Part shown: piece after piece, positions 1-9,937 of the stretch
Numbering within the stretch: position 1 is the first letter of the stretch
How the letters are laid out: each line of letters opens with the position of its first letter
Source of the DNA: a virus
Taxonomy: Duplodnaviria; Heunggongvirae; Uroviricota; Caudoviricetes
IMG/VR virus record: IMGVR_UViG_2698536681_000002
Length of the DNA: 9,937 nucleotides
Strand: one strand, 5' to 3'
Position numbers and translations under genes: made by a program
The notes under the pieces: generated by a model
The model's input: the letters and a program-made list of their open reading frames with translations, nothing else
What the model was told of the DNA's origin: nothing
The model's database searches: none

Positions 1-45
1 AGAATCGTAACGGGATACCAGATCAAGAGCCTGTCCAATGTGCAT

Positions 46-79
46 AAAAAAATCCGGAAACAAGTGAGCGTTTCCGGAT
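46..79 (-). terminator. Rho-independent terminator-like hairpin 30 nt downstream of the portal stop
   Basis: Perfect 9-bp inverted repeat ATCCGGAAA (52-60) / TTTCCGGAT (71-79) around a 10-nt loop. On the plus strand it is preceded by A7 (46-52), so on the minus strand the stem is followed by a T7 tract. Confidence 0.45.
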
Positions 80-112
80 TCTTACACAGCCACTGGATCG
101 GTCAACTGATCC

Positions 113-1360
113 TTAACTGATCGGCATTACACCACCGGGACGCGGATTCATATCTTCCAGGTCGCGGCAGTCATTGGAAGAGTAAATTCCCCAGTTGATC
201 CCGGTGGCGTAGGCTTCAAAACGGGACTTCATATCCCCGCGCAGTAACGCCCCGGCGTTAAATTTGGCGTAATAAACGCCCTGCTTACTTTTTCGTACCA
301 GTCCGGTGTTGATCCGCTGTTCGATGCGGGTCAGATACGGCACCAGTGAATAGTTGATAAATCCCAGCCCCAGCTCTTCGATATTGTTGAAGGTGGCGCG
401 ATCGGTGTTCTGCACCATGTGCAACGGCACCCGGAACAGACGACAGATTTCTTCCAGCTGAAACTTGCGGGTTTCCAGGAACTGACTGTCCTCGGCGTTC
501 AGCGCCATCGACTTCCAGTCCAGCCCCATTTCCAGAATCATCGGGCGGTGAGCATTGCCAAGCCCCGTGTGACACTCCTCAAAATCTTTCTTCAGACGCT
601 CGTAAGCATCCGGCGTGAGCTTTTGTTCCGTACGCAACACACCGGATGTCACCGCACCATTACTAAACAACCTGGCACCGTGCTCCTCGGTTGCCGCTGC
701 CAGTGAAATGGCCTCACGCGCATACGCAATGGGATTCAGCCCGACAAGTCCATCCAGCGTCAGGGTGCGCACATGCCAGATTTCATTCTGGGTCAACACA
801 TCCACGGAACCATCCGGAAACGTCACCTGATAAACCGGCTGCCACTGGCTGTTCAGCTTCGGTTCCACACAGCCCGGATCTATCGGAAGAAGCTCCACCA
901 CTTCTCCCAGTGCCTTTACCTTGTAGGCGTAAAAATTCCCCCGTAGACACAGGCAGACAATAACCAGCTCCCAGAATTCCTGCGGTGTCATGTAGCCATT
1001 AGGTTTTGCCGAAACCAACTTATGCAGTCGTTCATCCACCGCCCGTGTTTTCAGGGTACCGCTGATTTTGTAGAGACTGCAGGGCAGCATACCAACAGAC
1101 TCTGCCAGCACCCTGACGCAAGAATAGACCGCCGTCAGGCGCATGGCCCGCTGGCTACTGATCCGCTTTCCGGTATAGGTGTCGTATGACAGCCCGATAG
1201 CATCAGCAGTTCTGCTGGCGTGGTCACCGGCACATCGCTTTTTCGTTGAAATAATCCCGAAAAGAACACTATTTACCTCCGCCGACAGACTGCCGTGTAC
1301 GGTCGAGATATCGCGCCACCAGCCACGACCAGAACAGGCACAGCGCCCCGGCAACAACAA
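113..1360 (-). CDS. Phage portal protein, HK97 family; start codon unresolved
   Basis: Translation carries the portal N-terminal signature (...[39 protein letters not shown]...) and a long conserved body. It sits directly after the terminase large subunit. Stop at 113-115. The ORF-track start at 1360 is TTG; the next in-frame ATG is Met73 (1142-1144), with no GTG between, so the true start is uncertain. Confidence 0.85.
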
Positions 1361-1451
1361 AACCCGCCGGGGGATAAATCAGCCAGGCACCATACGCCAG
1401 CAAAAGCGCACCCAGCACGCCCACCAGAGGCGCGAGAATCAGCATGATCAT
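1269..1451 (-). CDS. Small hydrophobic protein, 60 aa, two predicted transmembrane helices
   Basis: ATG at 1449-1451 with GAGGT about 5 nt upstream, 11 nt after the terminase large stop. Translation [49 protein letters not shown] is strongly hydrophobic. Conflicts with the 5' end of the portal ORF in another frame. Confidence 0.4.
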
Positions 1452-1462
1452 AATTACCTCAG

Positions 1463-3196
1463 TTAAAGCGAGCGGATCCCGTAGGACTCAATGTGGTCAG
1501 ACAGCGTGTCTTCTTTCTCGTACAGCATGGCTCTGCCAACCGCCATAATCAGCGCAACTGCACCATCGATTTTGTTTTCCGCCTGCTCTTTGACGGGTTT
1601 CACCACATCATCGTTACCCGGCATGTTTTTGCCGACCACGTTGCCGATACACCAGGTCATGATGGGATTGCCGTCATGATGAAAACGTCCCGATTCAATC
1701 GCTGCTTCCAGCTCTTTCATCGGATCGGACATATTGGTGAAGTTCTGGACGATAGTGACGGGATTCAGGTCTTCATCAGCAAGGTCATGTGACAACCCGG
1801 TCGCCCCGAAGGGGTCGATGGGTGACTCACTGACCGGGCTGATTTTGTTCGCCGCTTTGGCCTCCTCGAGGATGTAGCGATAATCCACCTCCGCACCATC
1901 GGTAACGGTCAGAACGCCCATTTCCACCCATTTCTGAAAGCGTTCGGCTGTCCGTCGATCTTCATTTTTCTCGACGCTGTACACCGTGTCATACGGTACC
2001 CAGAAACGCGGGGCCACACTGTAGTAATGCGTTTTACCGTCAATCTCGCGGGTATAAAGTCGCGCCATGCTGTTCATATCCAGCTTACGCGCCAGGTCAA
2101 AGGCCAGAATGCACGGCTGCCCCTCGAACTGCTCAAGGGTCAGTGATTTATCCTCGCAGCTCTGCCAGCTCACCAAGTTGAAATACGCCGAACGCGCCGA
2201 CACCCAGATATTGAGGTGTTTTGTTTTAAAGACGTTTGCCAGACGGGCGTTATTTTTCGCACGCTGCTGCTGACTTAACAAAAATTCGCGATAAACCGAC
2301 ACGCCAATATTTGGATTGGCTTTTTCCAGCACCTGCGGGCCGGTCCAGTCGTCACCTTCATCAACGGTATAGATGATCCCGAACAGTTCATCGTTAGGCA
2401 CCGAGCCGTTGAGCATCTCGATGACTTCCCGCCGCTTGTCGTAGCACGGCCCCTCAATGTTGTACCCGGCGGTGGTGATGGCCCACATCAGTGGCTGACG
2501 TCGCGCCCCCATCCCGGTAAGCATTGTGGTATAAAGCGCATCGGTGGCATGCTCGTGATATTCATCAACCACGGCACAGTGGGGTGATGAACCATCACCT
2601 GGGTTGCCGATCAGCGGTTCAAACCGCGCGCCATCCTCCGGACGGTTCATGTTTGAGGCGTTAACCTCAATCCCGAACGCTTCCGTCAGCATGGGTGTGC
2701 GTTTACACATCAGTCGCGCCGGGCGAAAGACTTCCCACGCCTGTTTCTCTGTCGTGGCACCGGAATACACTTCCGCGCCAAACTCGTTATCACAGGCAAA
2801 ACAATACAGGGCAACACCGGCAGAGATTGCTGATTTGCCGTTCTTACGGGGGATTTCGGTGTACACCTCCCGGAAGCGGCGCAACCGGGTGCCTTTATTG
2901 ACCCAGCCAAACGCACAGCAGATCACAAATAGCTGCCACGGCTCCAGCGTGATGGGCATCCGTTTGAATGCCCACTCCCCCTTGGTGTGCGGCAACAGCT
3001 GAATAAATTTCGCGGCCCGTTCAGCCAGGTCCTTGTCGAAGCGGTAACGAAACGACTTACTTTTTTCCGCCATCAGGTCATCAAGATGGCGCTGGCAGGC
3101 CTGAATCACAAACTGGCAGGCAACAATCTTTCCGCGCACGACATCCCGGGCATACTGATTTGCAGCATTTACGTTGGGGTAAGATTTCCGGCTCAT
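1463..3196 (-). CDS. Terminase large subunit (TerL), 577 aa
   Basis: Full-length ORF with a Walker-A-like motif (IPRKNGKS) and typical terminase ATPase/nuclease architecture. ATG at 3194-3196 overlaps the TerS stop (ATGA). Stop at 1463-1465. Confidence 0.93.
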
Positions 3197-3687
3197 GATT
3201 CGATAATTTTCAGAAACGGGTTAGTGGCTTTCTTCTGCCCCGCCAGGCCAATCAGACGCTGGCGGCTGCTGGGGTCGAGTCCGAGCATTGCCCCCGTGCT
3301 GCTCATCTCGGACTCCTGTTCTTTTTTGGCGGTCAGCTCCGGATTTTTGACCCTGCCGCCCATTGCACCGGTGATGGTGTTGCCCTGTATGGCAATATTT
3401 TTCACGGCACGTCGCCAGAACTCATAGGCCACGCACCACCGCTCAAGTACCGCCAGGTCAGTCACGCACAGCAGGCCCTGACCGCAGAGTTCTTTGGTTG
3501 TCAGTTGCCACATGATCGTGGCGAGAGGGAGATCTTCTTCAGCGAACCACTCTGGTGGCTCAACACCTTTGATGGGCGTAAAAACAGGTTCATCTTTGTT
3601 CAGGGCTCGCTTGCCGGGGTTTCCGGCCAGCGCCTTGCGCGCCGTTGGCTTGGGGCGACGCCCGGAACGCCCCGCCGTTCCAGCCAT
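3193..3687 (-). CDS. Terminase small subunit, P27-like family
   Basis: N-terminus [18 protein letters not shown]... is characteristic of P27-family small terminases. ATG at 3685-3687 with AGGAG 10 nt upstream; the ORF-track start at 3696 is a GTG with no spacing to that Shine-Dalgarno. Stop TGA overlaps the TerL ATG. Confidence 0.85.
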
Positions 3688-3696
3688 ATGCGGCAC

Positions 3697-3808
3697 TCCT
3701 GGTTAAATTTCATTTTTCGCGGGTATAAAAAAACGATGGGGCGGGCAGTCCGGAAGACGTCAGGTCACAGGGATTTGCCCCGCCCCTCCCTACAAGTGAG
3801 AATAATTA
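3697..3808. other. Candidate cos / packaging-site region between HNH endonuclease and TerS
   Basis: 112-nt non-coding gap in the position where HK97-like phages carry cos. GC-rich imperfect inverted repeat GGGGCGGGCAG (3738-3748) / TTGCCCCGCCCC (3775-3786) flanks a GACGTC palindrome, with an A7 tract (3725-3731) beside it. Assignment is positional and by loose resemblance to a lambda cosN-like GGGCGG motif. Confidence 0.3.
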
Positions 3809-4159
3809 TCACCGGATTCGTTCGCGCGCTGTTTTCGCTTTATGGCAGGGCCAGCACAGACTCTGCAGGTTGCTGTCTGCGTCTGTTCCGCCATGCGCTT
3901 TCGGGATGATGTGGTCGACGGTTTTCGCCTCGCTCACCACACCGACACGCAGACACAACTGACACAGACCTTTATCGCGCTTCAGAATACGGGCACGAAT
4001 CACCGTCCATTTTGAGCCATAGCCACGCTGGTGGCGGCTCAGTCCGCGCTGGTGCTGCACCCAGCCTTCACCGCGATGTTTATCGCAGTAACCCGAACTG
4101 TCTGTGGTTGTACCTGCACATCCACGCTTACGGCAGGCACGTGGGATTAGTGATGGCAT
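3809..4159 (-). CDS. HNH endonuclease (terminase-associated), 116 aa
   Basis: Cys-rich N-terminus (CRKRGCAGTTTDSSGYCDKH) and HNH motif (DHIIPKAHGGTDADSNLQSLCWPCH). ATG at 4157-4159 with GAGGT 4 nt upstream. Confidence 0.9.
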   Translation of the reverse strand: MPSLIPRACRKRGCAGTTTDSSGYCDKHRGEGWVQHQRGLSRHQRGYGSKWTVIRARILKRDKGLCQLCLRVGVVSEAKTVDHIIPKAHGGTDADSNLQSLCWPCHKAKTARERIR

Positions 4160-4201
4160 AAATACCTCATACCCTGCGAAATGTTTACCACGATAAAAAG
4201 G

Positions 4202-4672
4202 CTACTTAATGCACTGAGTGCGGATATACTCCTGTGCCCCTTCCAGTTGCATCTGCATCGTCATCAGCCGCTCTCTGAGGGTGAAATAATCCCGTTCAGC
4301 GGTGTCTGCCAGTCGGGGGCTGGTTGCATTATCCACGCCGGAGGCGGTGGTGGCTTCACGCACTGACTGACAGACTGCTTTGATGTGCAACCGACGACGA
4401 CCAGCGGCAACATCAGCGCGCAGAGTTTCATTTTCAGCTTTCGCATCAGCTAACTCCTTCNNNNNNNNNNNNNNNNNNNNNNNNNNNNNNNNNNNNNNNN
4501 NNNNNNNNNNNNNNNNNNNNNNNNNNNNNNNNNNNNNNNNNNNNNNNNNNNNNNNNNNNNNNNNNNNNNNNNNNNNNNNNNNNNNNNNNNNNNNNNNNNN
4601 NNNNNNNNNNNNNNNNNNNNNNNNNNNNNNNNNNNNNNNNNNNNNNNNNNNNNNNNNNNNNNNNNNNNNNNN
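4202..4672 (-). CDS. Rz-like i-spanin; C-terminal 85 codons visible, N-terminus inside the N run (5' end estimated)
   Basis: Visible frame 4202..4459 translates KELADAKAENETLRADVAAGRRRLHIKAVCQSVREATTASGVDNATSPRLADTAERDYFTLRERLMTMQMQLEGAQEYIRTQCIK, near-identical to my recollection of the lambda Rz C-terminal half. The ORF-track start at 4390 is an internal TTG. The 4672 end is an estimate assuming about 155 aa and an ATGA overlap with the endolysin stop. Confidence 0.75.
   Translation of the reverse strand, partial: XXXXXXXXXXXXXXXXXXXXXXXXXXXXXXXXXXXXXXXXXXXXXXXXXXXXXXXXXXXXXXXXXXXXXXXKELADAKAENETLRADVAAGRRRLHIKAVCQSVREATTASGVDNATSPRLADTAERDYFTLRERLMTMQMQLEGAQEYIRTQCIK
4264..4446 (-). CDS. 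Rz1-like o-spanin lipoprotein, embedded in the +1 frame of Rz
   Basis: MRKLKMKLCALMLPLVVVGCTSKQSVSQCVKPPPPPAWIMQPAPDWQTPLNGIISPSESG has a signal peptide with lipobox (VVVGC) and a proline-rich mature part, near-identical to lambda Rz1 as I recall it. ATG at 4444-4446 lies wholly inside the Rz frame. Confidence 0.9.
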   Translation of the reverse strand: MRKLKMKLCALMLPLVVVGCTSKQSVSQCVKPPPPPAWIMQPAPDWQTPLNGIISPSESG

Positions 4673-4880
4673 NNNNNNNNNNNNNNNNNNNNNNNNNNNN
4701 NNNNNNNNNNNNNNNNNNNNNNNNNNNNNNNNNNNNNNNNNNNNNNNNNNNNNNNNNNNNNNNNNNNNNNNNNNNNNNNNNNNNNNNNNNNNNNNNNNNN
4801 NNNNNNNNNNNNNNNNNNNNNNNNNNNNNNNNNNNNNNNNNNNNNNNNNNNNNNNNNNNNNNNNNNNNNNNNNNNNNNNN
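4461..4880. other. N-masked run (420 nt) inside the lysis cassette
   Basis: Contiguous n characters. The flanking reading frames imply it hides the C-terminal part of the endolysin and the N-terminal part of Rz. Confidence 1.
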
Positions 4881-5166
4881 CCGGTATATCGACTTTGATG
4901 TACGGGTTAATTTGTCTGGCGACAGTGGCAAGGTCTTTATTCAGGAGGGCTTTGCATTCTGCTTCGGTATACGTTTTACCGAGCATGATGTCTTTTCCGG
5001 TGTGTCCGTGACATACAGTCCATACACCAATGATATCTTTGTATGGTATGTAGCTGACACCTTCCAGACCATCGTTACCACCTGGGCCAGTGATTAACAC
5101 AGATGCTATAGCAACAGCCCCACCACCAATAGCAGCTGCAACAGCCTTGCGTAATGATGGCGACAT
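4669..5166 (-). CDS. SAR endolysin, T4-lysozyme fold, phage 21 R / RrrD-like; 95 N-terminal residues visible (3' end estimated)
   Basis: ATG at 5164-5166 with GAGG upstream. N-terminal Gly/Ala-rich signal-anchor-release segment ([30 protein letters not shown]) followed by ...[29 protein letters not shown], placing Glu35/Asp44/Thr50 at the positions I recall for the R21 catalytic triad. The 238-aa read-through ORF in the track is an artefact of translating the N run; the 4669 end assumes about 165 aa. Confidence 0.85.
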
Positions 5167-5381
5167 TATTCACCTCTCGCAGCCTTACGCTTGTCTTCTC
5201 TTATTTTGAAATACAGATTTGTCAGATAAGTCAGAAGCCCCAGAAGCAGACTTCCCAGCACACCAATCGCAGCCCACTGTGATGGACTGACCTGATCCAA
5301 CCACTGCAAAAACCAGTAGCCGGCACTGCCGGCGGAGGTGCCGTAGGCANNNNNNNNNNNNNNNNNNNNNNNNNNNNNNNN
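5166..5381 (-). CDS. Pinholin, phage 21 S-like class II holin; C-terminal 60 residues visible (5' end estimated)
   Basis: Visible frame 5166..5348 translates [60 protein letters not shown], near-identical to S21 as I recall it. Its TAA stop overlaps the endolysin ATG (TAATG). Absent from the ORF track because its start lies in the N run; the 5381 end assumes about 71 aa. Confidence 0.75.
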
Positions 5382-5744
5382 NNNNNNNNNNNNNNNNNNN
5401 NNNNNNNNNNNNNNNNNNNNNNNNNNNNNNNNNNNNNNNNNNNNNNNNNNNNNNNNNNNNNNNNNNNNNNNNNNNNNNNNNNNNNNNNNNNNNNNNNNNN
5501 NNNNNNNNNNNNNNNNNNNNNNNNNNNNNNNNNNNNNNNNNNNNNNNNNNNNNNNNNNNNNNNNNNNNNNNNNNNNNNNNNNNNNNNNNNNNNNNNNNNN
5601 NNNNNNNNNNNNNNNNNNNNNNNNNNNNNNNNNNNNNNNNNNNNNNNNNNNNNNNNNNNNNNNNNNNNNNNNNNNNNNNNNNNNNNNNNNNNNNNNNNNN
5701 NNNNNNNNNNNNNNNNNNNNNNNNNNNNNNNNNNNNNNNNNNNN
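5350..5744. other. N-masked run (395 nt) upstream of the holin
   Basis: Contiguous n characters. Only about 32 nt are needed for the holin N-terminus, leaving roughly 360 nt of unknown content. Confidence 1.
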
Positions 5745-5759
5745 GAGTCAGACATTCCC

Positions 5760-5773
5760 ACACAATATTGTGT
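5760..5773. repeat. 14-bp perfect palindrome ACACAATATTGTGT
   Basis: Exactly self-complementary, in the 63-nt visible gap between the tRNA-Gly 3' end and the N run. Confidence 0.5.
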
Positions 5774-5807
5774 CAGTGCAAATAACAACCTTCGTCTCAA
5801 ATCTCGC

Positions 5808-5882
<75 letters not shown>

Positions 5883-5885
5883 ATA

Positions 5886-5961
<76 letters not shown>

Positions 5962-5963
5962 GC

Positions 5964-6040
5964 TGGCCCACCACCGAGGACTCGAACCTCGCACCGTCAA
6001 CTTAGAAGGTTGATGCTCTATCCGGATGAGCTAGTGGTGG
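5964..6040 (-). tRNA. tRNA-Arg, anticodon UCU (reads AGA/AGG), 77 nt
   Basis: CCACCACTAGCTCATCCGGATAGAGCATCAACCTTCTAAGTTGACGGTGCGAGGTTCGAGTCCTCGGTGGTGGGCCA: all four stems pair perfectly, anticodon loop CTTCTAA, encoded CCA. It differs from host argU as I recall it, consistent with a phage-type tRNA. Confidence 0.85.
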
Positions 6041-6041
6041 T

Positions 6042-6118
6042 TGGTGGCCCTTGCTGGACTTGAACCAGCGACCTGGCGATTATGAGTCGCTCGCTCTGAC
6101 CAACTGAGCTAAAGGGCC
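6042..6118 (-). tRNA. tRNA with CAU anticodon (Met, or Ile2 if lysidine-modified; ileX/ileZ-like), 77 nt
   Basis: GGCCCTTTAGCTCAGTTGGTCAGAGCGAGCGACTCATAATCGCCAGGTCGCTGGTTCAAGTCCAGCAAGGGCCACCA: cloverleaf with anticodon loop CTCATAA. It resembles E. coli ileX and the Stx-phage ileZ type as I recall them. Confidence 0.85.
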
Positions 6119-6127
6119 GGAGGCAGA

Positions 6128-6156
6128 ATAATAACCATATGTCATCACATCTGCAA
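6128..6156 (-). promoter_or_regulatory. Candidate sigma70 promoter for the tRNA array
   Basis: On the minus strand: TTGCAG (-35, weak), 17-nt spacer, TATTAT (-10), ending 9 nt before the 5' end of the first tRNA. Confidence 0.3.
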
Positions 6157-6206
6157 ACTCATCTGACCACCAGCACGTTTAACGTCCTGTGCCGTTTTTC
6201 AGGTAT

Positions 6207-6231
6207 AAAAAAACCCGCTCATCGGCGGGTT
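6207..6231 (-). terminator. Rho-independent terminator downstream of the ORF6N gene
   Basis: On the minus strand: 7-bp stem AACCCGC/GCGGGTT with a 6-nt loop, followed by T7 (plus-strand A7 at 6207-6213). About 80 nt after the ORF6N stop and before the tRNA promoter. Confidence 0.65.
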
Positions 6232-6307
6232 TAAGCTGTGTGGCGTAGTAACCACTCTTAACAGGATATTCAACTTTTTACGATCGTAAAGTTTTCGGAA
6301 AAAATTT

Positions 6308-6871
6308 TTAAAACCGCATCAACCGCTCCACCAGTTGCTCTTTACGGGCAACGATCCACCCGTGTTGCTCCAGATAAAATTTAAACCGTTCCAGAGTACA
6401 TACCATCGCATCGGCGGGTACCTTTTCCGTGAACTCAACCTGACCGTGTTTATCGAAGTGGCTCAGTAATGCGCATCCATCATTTTCGATAGATGTGTTT
6501 TGTGCCGCTGGTGGCTGTTTCTGGTTGAAATAACAGTCTTCCAGTTTTTCGAACACTTCCCACGCCTGATCGGTTTCGAGCATTTTGGCGTGACGGGCTG
6601 CGCCACGTTCTGTCCAGAGGATGAGGGAGCGAACGTTACGGGCAATTTTCACAGAAACTCTTAAAGAGTTTTCGTTCTTCAACTCTCGTAACGCATCACC
6701 TTCTATCAGGAAAAAATGTTTACCTTCTATAAACCGTTCTTTGTTTCGATTGAAATTGTTTGTCAAACGCTGGCGCTCTGTTCCGTACAAATCAGCCAGC
6801 AGCTCTGTTGTCATGACAGGAAGATGGTTATGCGTAAGTGACGGGAGTTTTTCAATAGACGTGCGATTCAT
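6308..6871 (-). CDS. ORF6N-domain protein (KilA-N / antirepressor-like DNA-binding domain family), about 187 aa; accessory gene
   Basis: Translation MNRTSIEKLPSLTHNHLPVMTTELLADLYGTERQRLTNNFNRNKERFIEGKHFFLIEGDALRELK...RSLILWTERGAARHAKMLETDQAWEVFEKLEDCYF matches my recollection of the ORF6N consensus (NF.NNK.RF.EGKH.F...G..L.......LWTERGA.RHAK.L.TD.AWEV...LED.YF). Preferred start is the ATG at 6869-6871 (AGGA 7 nt upstream), with an alternative ATG at 6877. The longer ORF-track start at 7069 would run through the promoter/terminator modules and is rejected. Confidence 0.75.
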   Translation of the reverse strand: MNRTSIEKLPSLTHNHLPVMTTELLADLYGTERQRLTNNFNRNKERFIEGKHFFLIEGDALRELKNENSLRVSVKIARNVRSLILWTERGAARHAKMLETDQAWEVFEKLEDCYFNQKQPPAAQNTSIENDGCALLSHFDKHGQVEFTEKVPADAMVCTLERFKFYLEQHGWIVARKEQLVERLMRF

Positions 6872-7014
6872 AGACATGTCCTTTCGAATATTTTGATTTA
6901 CCCCTTTTGAGAGGGTGACCGGGCGCTCAAAACCGTCGAAAGTCGGCGGGCGTATTTCCATTGCTGGTATTGTATTAGCCGCACACCCGGTCATAAACCA
7001 AGAATTCTGGACAC

Positions 7015-7042
7015 AAAAAAACCACATGGCTATCGGGTGTGG
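7015..7042 (-). terminator. Terminator-like hairpin plus T7 tract (module 2)
   Basis: On the minus strand: stem CCACA/TGTGG around an 11-nt loop (an alternative stem GGTATC/GATAGCC is possible), followed by TTTTTTT (plus-strand A7 at 7015-7021). About 45 to 55 nt downstream of the module-2 -10 element. Confidence 0.45.
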
Positions 7043-7077
7043 ATACCGCTTTCGAGGTGTTTTGAGCACCGCGGGGA

Positions 7078-7106
7078 AATGTAAACTGCAAACCTGAAAC
7101 TGTCAA
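7078..7106 (-). promoter_or_regulatory. Candidate sigma70 promoter (module 2)
   Basis: On the minus strand: consensus -35 TTGACA (plus 7101-7106), exact 17-nt spacer, -10 TACATT (plus 7078-7083). Confidence 0.45.
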
Positions 7107-7231
7107 CACCGTCAGGTTCCAATCATCGGGTGGTGAGACGCACAGGGTTGGAACTACCGGGAAACCGACCGGCGAGCTTTTCAGCTCCCCCATGCGCCCC
7201 ACCATAATTCAGATGTGCGCGTGCATACGAC

Positions 7232-7256
7232 AATAAAAAACACGCTCGCGGCGTGT
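7232..7256 (-). terminator. Rho-independent terminator (module 1); candidate tR'
   Basis: On the minus strand: 6-bp stem ACACGC/GCGTGT with loop CGCGA, followed by TTTTTATT. About 75 to 85 nt downstream of the module-1 promoter. Confidence 0.5.
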
Positions 7257-7317
7257 GTCTGTCGCGGTCTCTATCCGGGGTTCCAATCCCGACGCCAGAT
7301 TTTGCTGGCGCGTGAGG

Positions 7318-7347
7318 AATATAGCCCCGGACAATGTGTCTGGTCAA
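7318..7347 (-). promoter_or_regulatory. Candidate sigma70 promoter immediately after the Q stop (module 1); candidate late promoter PR'
   Basis: On the minus strand: -35 TTGACC (plus 7342-7347), 18-nt spacer, -10 TATATT (plus 7318-7323). It begins 5 nt after the Q stop codon and is followed in the initial transcribed region by the hairpin GCGCCAG-CAAAAT-CTGGCG. Confidence 0.45.
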
Positions 7348-7351
7348 GCAC

Positions 7352-7738
7352 CTACATAATTCGTTCTACGTATCTGTCCATCTCCAGCCGGATATCAAGC
7401 ATCATCAACATGCCATCAATAACCCCTTCCGCTTTCTGCAGGCGCTTGCCAATACAGGTATCCGAACACCCATGTTTCCGTGCCAGACTCATAAAAGTCA
7501 TTCCACCTACGTAATAATCCACCAGCAAATCGTGCAAATCCTGATTTTTCTTGTTCAACCGGGCCATACAGCCACAAATTATCATTGCATCATCATCAGA
7601 ACACTGAGGGCGTGATTTCACTTTCGACGGAATTAACCCTTTAAAACCAGCAGCGATCGACGCCCAGGATACATCTTCATGAGTGTTTGCAGCCCAAGCC
7701 CCCCACCGTTCCATAACCTGCTGAATATCACGCGCCAT
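7352..7738 (-). CDS. Late-gene antitermination protein Q, Q21/QuuD-like family, about 128 aa
   Basis: Translation [105 protein letters not shown]... closely matches my recollection of E. coli DLP12 QuuD. Preferred start is the ATG at 7736-7738 (AGGTGA upstream, 11-nt overlap with the RusA stop); an alternative ATG is at 7759. Confidence 0.88.
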
Positions 7739-8099
7739 CGTTATCACCTGTGATTTCATAAATCTTCACGCCCAGTCGCCCACCAGGAACGAGCTGACCG
7801 CGCACAATATTGATTTCATCAAACTGCTCGTCGTCTATGAGTAGTCCGGCATGCGTCAGCGCATCCAGTGGTGCTTTCAGGATATTGTCCAGGTCACGAC
7901 GGCGCTTATCCGGTGGCTCTGCAATAATCTTTATCGCCAGCCTTCCGGACAGGTTTAATTTCAGCCGCTGCTGGCGAACAATTAGCGTCACATCACGGCG
8001 ATAACGCTCACCAACTTTTGATACAAAATATGTGCTGCCACGACGTCGCCAGTAAGTATTCACCGTCGGCGGATAAGGTAAAATAAACTCATGGCGCAT
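7728..8099 (-). CDS. rusA: RusA-family Holliday junction resolvase, 123 aa
   Basis: RusA-like motifs ([12 protein letters not shown]...[30 protein letters not shown]). ATG at 8097-8099 overlaps the upstream stop (ATGA). It sits directly upstream of Q, as in 21/82-type nin regions. Confidence 0.88.
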
Positions 8100-8341
8100 C
8101 AGCGCAGCACCTCCTGCACCATTTTTTCAAACTTTCCAACTTTGGTTTCCAGCTCTGCCACACAATCAACGAGCTCATCCACCGCTTTTTGTGCGCGATG
8201 TTTCGCCTGCATCAGTTCCCTGAGCGCTGGCACCATATCCCGACGAATGGCATCTTTTGTTACACCTGTTTTTTCCAGTTGTTCCGCCTGTCGCAACATT
8301 TCCTGCGCGTGTTTACGCAATTGTTCAGAGGTAAAAGTCAT
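8099..8341 (-). CDS. Hypothetical small protein, about 80 aa, predicted coiled coil
   Basis: ORF between the helicase and RusA. ATG at 8339-8341 (the ORF-track start at 8356 is TTG). Charged heptad-like sequence (EQLRKHAQEMLRQAEQLEKTG...AQKAVDELVDCVAELETKVGKFEKMVQEVLR). No family recognised. Confidence 0.5.
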   Translation of the reverse strand: MTFTSEQLRKHAQEMLRQAEQLEKTGVTKDAIRRDMVPALRELMQAKHRAQKAVDELVDCVAELETKVGKFEKMVQEVLR

Positions 8342-8352
8342 TGTCTGGTTGT

Positions 8353-9744
8353 TCAAAAGAAACGCTCCATCTTACTGCTGTCGGTACGTGTATTGCTGTA
8401 TCTGCGCGGCTGGGGCTGCCGCATTGGGGTGGAAAGAACCTGTGCGCTTTCCTGGTCCACAGGCAGAAAATGTCCGTTATAAAAACGCCGGTAAATCGTC
8501 CCCAGAGAACCGTTACGTTGTTTCGTGATATTAATTTCTGCTATGCCTGTAGCCTGTGTATCCGGGTTGTACACTTCATCCCTGTAAAGCATCAGAATGA
8601 TGTCTGCATCCGCCTCTATTTCTCCGGAATTTTTCAGGTCTGAGTTCATGGGACGTTTATTGGGTCTGGACTCCACACCGCGGGAGAGCTGGCTCAGCGC
8701 AATCAACGGAAAACCACCGGATTTTGCCAGGCCTTTAAGCCCCTTTGAGATTTCACCCACGGCAAGGTCATGACGCCCCGTGGTTCGGGTTTTTATCAGC
8801 CCGAGATAATCAACCACCACCAGCGCCGTTTCCGGATGTTTAATCAGATGGTGTTTCGTTGTTGCGCATATCTCATCAATGGTCAGGTTCGCCTGGTCCA
8901 CCATCCAGATATTGCGCCCGGTCATCCGCCCCACCCCTTGTGAGAAACGCGCCCAGTCTTCATCTTCAAAGTGAGCCACAGATTTCAGGCGTGATACTGG
9001 CATCCCTCCAGCCGCAGACACCATACGTTCACCAATCTGGATGTTCGCCATCTCCATGGTGAACAGAAGCACACCATGCCCCTGCTCAGTCACCTTGTCG
9101 ATGATGTCCAGCGCAAGTTCGGTTTTCCCCATCGAAGGACGGGCGGCAATGAATACCAGGTCTCCGGGCTCCATACCGCCTGTTTTTGCGTCCAGTTCAT
9201 CAATACCGGTCATCAACGTCCTGGATTTCTCCAGCCCCTGATTCCGGCATTCAACACGCTCAACCACTTCCGGAAGCACATCATCAATATGTACCGGCTG
9301 AATGACGCCCTTTCCTGTCGACAGTGTGACCATCATGTTCTGCGCATCCTTCAGGGCATCTTCAGCTGCTTCACAGGTATGCGCATCACGTAATTTCTGC
9401 AGCGCCTCATTCAGTGTTTTTTCTGCATCGCGCAGTGCGGCATTGCGCCGCAACGCTGCAACATAGTGCTCCAGTGAAGACTTCACCCAGGTTTTACGCC
9501 CGGTATCAGTAATCACCGGGGCAAGTTCCGGCATCTCATTACACAACAGCACGGGGTCAATCACTCCTGAAACACGGGCCTGTCTGCAGATGCCTGTGTA
9601 GATATCCCGATACGCTCGTACAGAAAAAATGTCCGCCGGTAGTGTGATCAGAATATCCATCACTTCATGATCTGCCCCACGCAGAAAGAATGCGCCAATG
9701 ACAGCGCCTTCCAGGTCATCATTACGCCAGACTGGTGTTGTCAT
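8353..9744 (-). CDS. Replicative DNA helicase, DnaB family, about 463 aa
   Basis: DnaB-like motifs: Walker A (ARPSMGKTELALDI), and the C-terminal helicase motifs (VVVDYLGLI, ALSQLSRGVESRPNKRPMNSDLKNSGEIEADADIILMLYRDEVY, ITKQRNGSLGT). Preferred start is the ATG at 9742-9744 (GAGGTG upstream); the ORF-track GTG start at 9885 adds 47 non-DnaB-like residues. Confidence 0.9.
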   Translation of the reverse strand: MTTPVWRNDDLEGAVIGAFFLRGADHEVMDILITLPADIFSVRAYRDIYTGICRQARVSGVIDPVLLCNEMPELAPVITDTGRKTWVKSSLEHYVAALRRNAALRDAEKTLNEALQKLRDAHTCEAAEDALKDAQNMMVTLSTGKGVIQPVHIDDVLPEVVERVECRNQGLEKSRTLMTGIDELDAKTGGMEPGDLVFIAARPSMGKTELALDIIDKVTEQGHGVLLFTMEMANIQIGERMVSAAGGMPVSRLKSVAHFEDEDWARFSQGVGRMTGRNIWMVDQANLTIDEICATTKHHLIKHPETALVVVDYLGLIKTRTTGRHDLAVGEISKGLKGLAKSGGFPLIALSQLSRGVESRPNKRPMNSDLKNSGEIEADADIILMLYRDEVYNPDTQATGIAEINITKQRNGSLGTIYRRFYNGHFLPVDQESAQVLSTPMRQPQPRRYSNTRTDSSKMERFF

Positions 9745-9937
9745 GCAGCCACACCTCTGATACAAGAACGGTAGCTGGGCCAGTTGAACGACAACCAGTT
9801 GCGCCCCCCGTCTGTGATCCTGTCGGCAATGCGGGGGCTGATGAACGCTGGATTTGCCCCTATATTTCCAGACACCTGTTATCACTTAACCCATTACTGG
9901 CTTGCTGCCGTAGATATTCCCGTGGCGAGCGATAACC

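Follow-up and report, generated by a model that had tools for sequence, protein, structure and literature searches.

A portal gene carrying a one-base deletion and an IS4 insertion at the ymfR junction of a Shigella sonnei-type prophage remnant

The portal gene in the window (the whole stretch of DNA that was analyzed, 9,937 nucleotides of IMG/VR record IMGVR_UViG_2698536681_000002) is almost certainly a pseudogene, disrupted by a one-base deletion and an IS4 insertion within a decayed prophage remnant of the S. sonnei type. The apparent anomaly at the start of the portal arises from the resulting frameshift, and the locus itself is the already known terL-ymfR-portal junction of phiP27/SfII/ST64B-type phages, which have an HK97-like head module. 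A remnant of this kind is fixed in S. sonnei, and none of the observations made speaks against the pseudogene reading. The features on which this reading is built are listed in Table 1.

Table 1. Coordinates of the features identified in the window
Feature	Position	Strand	Description
IS4 left end	1..129	minus	Inserted after portal codon 380; from transposase matches and junction comparison
Long portal-frame ORF	1360..113	minus	415 aa; opens with three TTG codons (1360-1352)
Portal body	130..1207	minus	Codons 22-380 of the repaired portal; HK97-family portal domain; in the frame of ORF 1360..113
Met73 of the long ORF	1142..1144	minus	First ATG of the portal-body frame; residue 42 of the repaired portal
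One-base deletion	1207..1208	minus	CTGGC in relatives, CTGC in the window; between portal codons 21 and 22
True portal 5' end	1207..1269	minus	GTG start (1269-1267) and codons 2-21; from alignment and translations of relatives
ymfR	1269..1451	minus	60 aa, two hydrophobic helices; ATG 1451-1449, GAGG 1460-1457, stop TAG 1271-1269
Portal Shine-Dalgarno (GGAGG)	1276..1280	minus	In the last ymfR codons, 7 nt before the GTG
Three TTG codons	1352..1360	minus	Not a start site; head of a fortuitous upstream extension of the portal-body frame
Large terminase subunit gene	1463..3196	minus	577 aa, intact; PF03354 and PF20441; annotated so in relatives
P27-family small terminase	3193..3696	minus	
HNH endonuclease	3809..4159	minus	
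ORF6N-domain protein	within 6308..7069	minus	
510-aa ORF	8353..9885	minus	Replicative DNA helicase gene at the same position in related E. coli prophages

Portal start and its junction with ymfR

A preliminary description of this DNA had reported that the long portal-frame ORF lacks ATG and GTG from its TTG codons to Met73; this was confirmed by reading the sequence, in which only ATC, CTG, and ATT occurred in this interval. The portal-like sequence that it had noted upstream of Met73 was found to comprise 20 residues in the same frame and 21 residues in another frame, and the 60-aa ORF that it had described as overlapping a TTG-started portal is present, preceded by GAGG, with an overlap of 92 nt. 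It had presented the start codon of the portal as anomalous. No such anomaly exists, as the portal starts with a GTG in a frame that had not been considered. The ORF opened by this GTG (1269..1135, minus strand), which had been missed together with the IS4 truncation at the portal 3' end, encodes 44 aa and ends with TGA (1137-1135) at codon 45. The ymfR stop TAG supplies the G of the GTG (TAGTG in the window), and an in-frame TAA (1275-1273) closes the portal frame upstream of it (TAA ATA GTG).

For comparison, 80 related loci were taken from IMG/VR using the repaired portal (described below) as the query. A 60-aa YmfR homologue was located directly upstream of the portal in all of them, and the ymfR stop and the portal start shared one base throughout, as TAGTG (GTG start) in 57 loci and as TAATG (ATG start) in 23 loci, the portals of the latter subgroup reading MFFQGLFQ. 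The GGAGG motif was found 7 nt upstream of the start in 80 of 80 relatives, in the context GGAGG(T)AAATAGTG or GGAGGTGAGTAATG. All 80 also had an in-frame stop two codons upstream (TAA ATA GTG or TGA GTA ATG), and hence no earlier portal start is possible in any of them. The portal ORF was intact from the conserved start in 76 relatives; the remaining four showed the 44-codon ORF, and they were contigs 100% identical to the window, representing its own lineage. The N-terminus of the relatives' portals corresponds to the 21 residues of the window GTG ORF, followed by the window long ORF from its residue 53. Because the window has the same signals as all 80 relatives, the real portal start is, from this comparison, the Shine-Dalgarno-preceded and canonical GTG.

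The arrangement extended well beyond the IMG/VR loci. A 600-nt region matched 1,600 of 5,426 complete E. coli genomes and 23 phage records, and the annotation beneath the matches was uniform (terminase large subunit, ymfR or "membrane protein", and portal protein). The annotated portal CDS starts on the last base of the stop of the small gene in phiP27, SfII, and the UTI89 prophage, while the ST64B annotation starts one codon earlier in the same frame. These four share with the window the gene order of terS, terL, the 60-aa membrane protein, and portal (the last two being L37/L38 in phiP27, SfII_03/04 in SfII, and sb3/sb4 in ST64B), as well as the GGAGGTAAATAGTG junction, with 94-97% identity to the window over the region. 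They differ from the window in having intact portals of 413-414 aa, after which come the prohead protease and major capsid genes, whereas the window copy is frameshifted and cut by IS4. The portal body of the window is about 94-97% identical to the phiP27 and SfII portals. The same 1-nt overlap is found in the e14 element of K-12, between ymfR (b1150, 5550-5732 of the retrieved locus L100) and beeE (b1151, from 5732). As in the window, a decayed portal resides in a defective prophage, but the e14 portal is shortened by another lesion than the frameshift and IS4 of the window (the beeE call is 157 aa and followed by the jayE pseudogene), and the terminase of e14 is also a pseudogene, while that of the window is intact.

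These data bear directly on the first explanation offered earlier, a functional portal starting from one of the TTG codons and overlapping ymfR by about 90 nt, which we consider very improbable. The frame is indeed open from 1360, and the original gene call of strain Ss046 uses the second TTG (414 aa). However, no strong Shine-Dalgarno sequence precedes the TTG codons, no relative has an equivalent of the 52 extra residues, the stretch lying off the portal frame there, and the portal frame of the relatives is shut 6 nt (two codons) upstream of the GTG or ATG. A TTG start would forfeit the conserved portal N-terminus, in a gene that is truncated by IS4 and whose head-gene partners are absent. 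Comparison of homologues, which had been proposed as the means of locating the start, revealed a conserved GTG or ATG over the ymfR stop and no conserved TTG start. The openness of the interval from 1360 to 1207 needs no special cause, as G+C-rich coding sequence is here read in an alternative frame; we estimate the chance of a stop-free run of 51 codons at (61/64)^51, or approximately 0.09. The long TTG-headed ORF represents the portal body, read backwards over ymfR by a gene finder up to a stop. The second explanation, a real small ORF next to a portal with a non-canonical start, was right about the small ORF and wrong about the start, which is a canonical GTG with a Shine-Dalgarno sequence.

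By its conservation, the small ORF is a real gene, ymfR. Its counterparts in E. coli, phiP27, ST64B, SfII, and K-12 e14 are annotated as "protein YmfR" or "membrane protein". All 80 relatives encode a product of exactly 60 aa, a length that was constant over 43 distinct nucleotide versions, and the variable sites were distributed as 19, 11, and 29 over codon positions 1, 2, and 3, respectively. The pN/pS ratio was 0.44 in the ymfR frame, compared with 0.91 and 1.38 in the two alternative frames. YmfR matched PHROG 502 ("membrane protein") over residues 1-55 (E=2.8e-28), and its gene was placed between terL and portal, with its stop overlapping the portal start, in the 80 relatives and in phiP27, SfII, UTI89, and e14. 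No family was matched in profile searches of Pfam and NCBIfam. The two hydrophobic segments in its hydropathy profile support a putative membrane protein. A literature search retrieved no functional study of YmfR, and the papers found name it only in passing or by a look-alike name.

The geometry of the junction (UAGUG or UAAUG, with GGAGG inside the end of ymfR) suggests that ymfR and the portal gene would be arranged for translational coupling in functional relatives, and we infer from the same geometry that coupling probably takes place.

A "putative rho-independent terminator" is marked within the 5' part of ymfR in the SfII record (L003, 2370-2419; approximately 1443-1394 in the window). 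A simple terminator scan detected none at the equivalent position on the coding strand of the window, and scanning near the region gave nothing beyond the shuffled expectation.

One-base deletion in the portal gene

In the base-by-base alignment of the window with four intact annotated relatives, only one gap column was observed. The relatives read GA(G/A)CTGGC(G/T)GA, while the window reads GAACTGCTGA, and thus one G of a GG pair is gone. The deletion is located 62 nt into the portal gene and places its first 21 codons out of frame with the rest. As a consequence, the GTG frame runs out of register after codon 21, and translation from the real start would end after 44 residues. When G1207 was used twice, a 380-residue portal with the N-terminus of the relatives was restored. 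The repaired protein matched TIGR01537 with 263.6 bits (cut-off of 112.05) over residues 39-379 (profile positions 3-343 of 343) and PF04860 with 359.2 bits (cut-off of 39.1) over residues 47-373 (profile positions 2-321 of 321). In comparison with HK97-family portals, the repaired protein therefore covers the full-length profile, but the window copy cannot make it from its native start, as its reading frame is broken before the conserved stop can be reached. Given the deletion after codon 21 and the IS4 insertion after codon 380, the window portal is a pseudogene of the HK97 family. The third explanation of the preliminary description, a frameshift or sequence error near 1270-1290, was correct in its frameshift, which is a real one-base deletion; the proposed site lies some 60-80 nt upstream of the real one, and the change is inherited rather than a sequence error.

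Joining the GTG frame to the portal body within their overlap (1269 to 1135) would take a -1 shift. Programmed -1 ribosomal frameshifting could in principle provide it, but we regard this as vanishingly unlikely. No X XXY YYZ heptamer was found in the GTG frame across 1269-1135, and the two-frame arrangement is not conserved: the portal is encoded in a single frame in 76 of 80 relatives, the shift being present only in the lineage of the window, and the difference amounts to a simple deletion of GG to G. The IS4 truncation and the lost head genes weaken this explanation further.

The missing base could alternatively be an error of sequencing or assembly, the 5' end being intact in the real genome. 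The site is a short GG run, and single-base indels are a common error type; nevertheless, a two-base run is no error hotspot, and the distribution of the deletion leaves this explanation scarcely credible. The same deletion was present in all eight NCBI loci examined (L012-L019), the finished chromosome of Ss046 among them, and it is shared by six IMG/VR contigs (L006-L011), each with a different genome id. Locus L016 of the NCBI set is 99.3% identical to the window and differs from it at 23 other positions, yet carries the same deletion. Since it is identical in many independent assemblies, the deletion is, on these records, an inherited mutation of the window lineage and not a read error.

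As for the identity of this lineage, the window was 100% identical to CP000038.1 across all the unmasked stretches compared, and CP000038.1 is the chromosome of Shigella sonnei Ss046 (PMC5447701). The nearest IMG/VR contig with an intact site (L005) was approximately 95% identical over the aligned portion. The window version was found in none of the 5,426 complete E. coli genomes, in which the best identity over the 600-nt region was 95.5%, and an exact-pattern scan of the species-representative genome collection gave no match to it. The empty result of the latter scan is probably explained by GTDB having no separate Shigella representative.

From the two lesions, we infer that the window lineage has no functional portal product; a low-level product may arise from Met73 or a near-cognate codon.

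IS4 insertion at the 3' end of the portal gene

After the residues NPRPGG, the portals of the relatives continue with DVYLTPMNMTT... for 33 more residues, while the window continues with VMPIS and a stop (115-113). At the nucleotide level, the window departs from the relatives exactly after CCCGGTGGTG. The divergent DNA matched the "IS4-like element IS4 family transposase" (RefSeq label) in thousands of E. coli records. The 18-bp IS4 terminal repeat TAATGCCGATCAGTTAAG occupies 129-112, and the transposase gene starts with ATG at 45-43 and runs past the window edge, so that the first 129 bases of IS4 are inside the window. Downstream in two of the NCBI loci (L015 and L016), a 442-aa transposase was identified with PF13006 (Nterm_IS4) and PF01609 (DDE_Tnp_1), and the IS4 ends, TAATGCCGATCAGTTAAG and TAATGCCAGTCAGTTAAG, are imperfect terminal repeats matching at 16 of 18 positions. 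The element therefore combines terminal inverted repeats with an IS4-type DDE transposase, as expected for a member of IS4.

The identical IS4 junction was found in all seven NCBI loci that reach it, including L016. The right IS4 end adjoins the host genes raiA-pheL-pheA in L015 and L016, and in the Ss046 copy the IS4 is itself interrupted by another IS. Because the far side of IS4 adjoins host genes in complete genomes, this site has lost the prohead protease, capsid, and tail genes that come after the portal in relatives. The insertion at codon 380 removes the last 33 codons of the portal gene, and, in the complete genomes, it joins the remnant to unrelated chromosome. The locus differs in this respect from an IS4 insertion in general: the right flank in complete genomes is raiA-pheL-pheA or another IS and not the portal tail, which implies a later IS-mediated deletion or rearrangement.

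One IMG/VR contig (L011) has a different right flank. Past the right IS4 end, 12 bp of the left flank (GTCCCGGTGGTG) are repeated in direct orientation, after which come the portal tail, protease, and capsid genes; this 12-bp target duplication is the signature of the original simple insertion. L011 (IMGVR_UViG_2663762996_000003, positions 1-4940) carries the same deletion, yet its portal runs uninterrupted past the IS4 site. Next come an "n" at 2819, a partial IS4 with its 5' hairpin loop in the opposite orientation to that of the window, and another copy of the portal tail and protease, which differs at 3 of 376 nt. L011 could be two related prophages wrongly scaffolded together or a genuine intermediate having the deletion without IS4; the contig looks mis-scaffolded.

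The flank of IS4 in the portal gene (window 130-141, GTCCCGGTGGTG) resembles the flank CCCCTGTCGGTG of an unrelated IS4 in atoC of E. coli Rb-50 (L101, approximately 1500-1512). Similar flanks stretched the BLAST matches by about 10 bases beyond the IS4 end. The shared flank hints at a possible target preference of IS4.

Within the IS4 end, a long perfect hairpin with a T-run (AATCCGGAAAC-GCTCACTT-GTTTCCGGATTTTTTT) occupies 62-96 on the minus strand, just upstream of the transposase start. The consensus terminator scan did not list it. Transcription running towards IS4 from the phage late operon would probably be stopped at this hairpin.

Wider remnant and public annotation

The remaining part of the prophage (3193-9885, minus strand) looks like an intact and ordinary lambdoid/P27-like prophage. 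The stop of the terminase gene (TAA, 1465-1463) lies 11 nt before the ymfR start, and many NCBI records encode an identical terminase protein. Two ORFs on the minus strand, 7728..8099 and 7352..7759, presumably resemble a RusA-type resolvase and a Q-type antiterminator. The decay of this prophage is ordinary and adds one more case driven by IS elements and indels in S. sonnei.

The public annotation of the portal pseudogene is inconsistent. In the complete records L013-L016, the portal is called with 343 aa from Met73 alongside ymfR; the same 343-aa call is made in L017, where ymfR is uncalled, while a 414-aa portal from the second TTG is called in Ss046 (L018) and no portal in L012. The calls thus disagree (343 aa, 414 aa, or none), and neither the real GTG start nor the frameshift is marked by any of them. 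The overlap of the ymfR stop and the portal start provides a simple rule by which portals in this phage group can be annotated and decayed copies flagged.

S. sonnei might still express a clipped portal (for example, the 343 aa from Met73) or the intact ymfR, and the product could then hinder related phages in head assembly or infection, which we consider very unlikely. If true, it would give YmfR, as a small membrane protein that always accompanies the portal in this head module, an unrecognized role in packaging or exclusion.

Two runs of N (4461-4880 and 5350-5744) mask parts of the lysis cassette region, where holin, lysozyme, and Rz are found in the identical NCBI loci, and the ORFs listed across these runs are masking artefacts. 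For several genes, the starts of the longest ORFs exceed the public calls, as in the ORF6N-domain protein (253 vs. 187 aa) and terS (167 vs. 164 aa).
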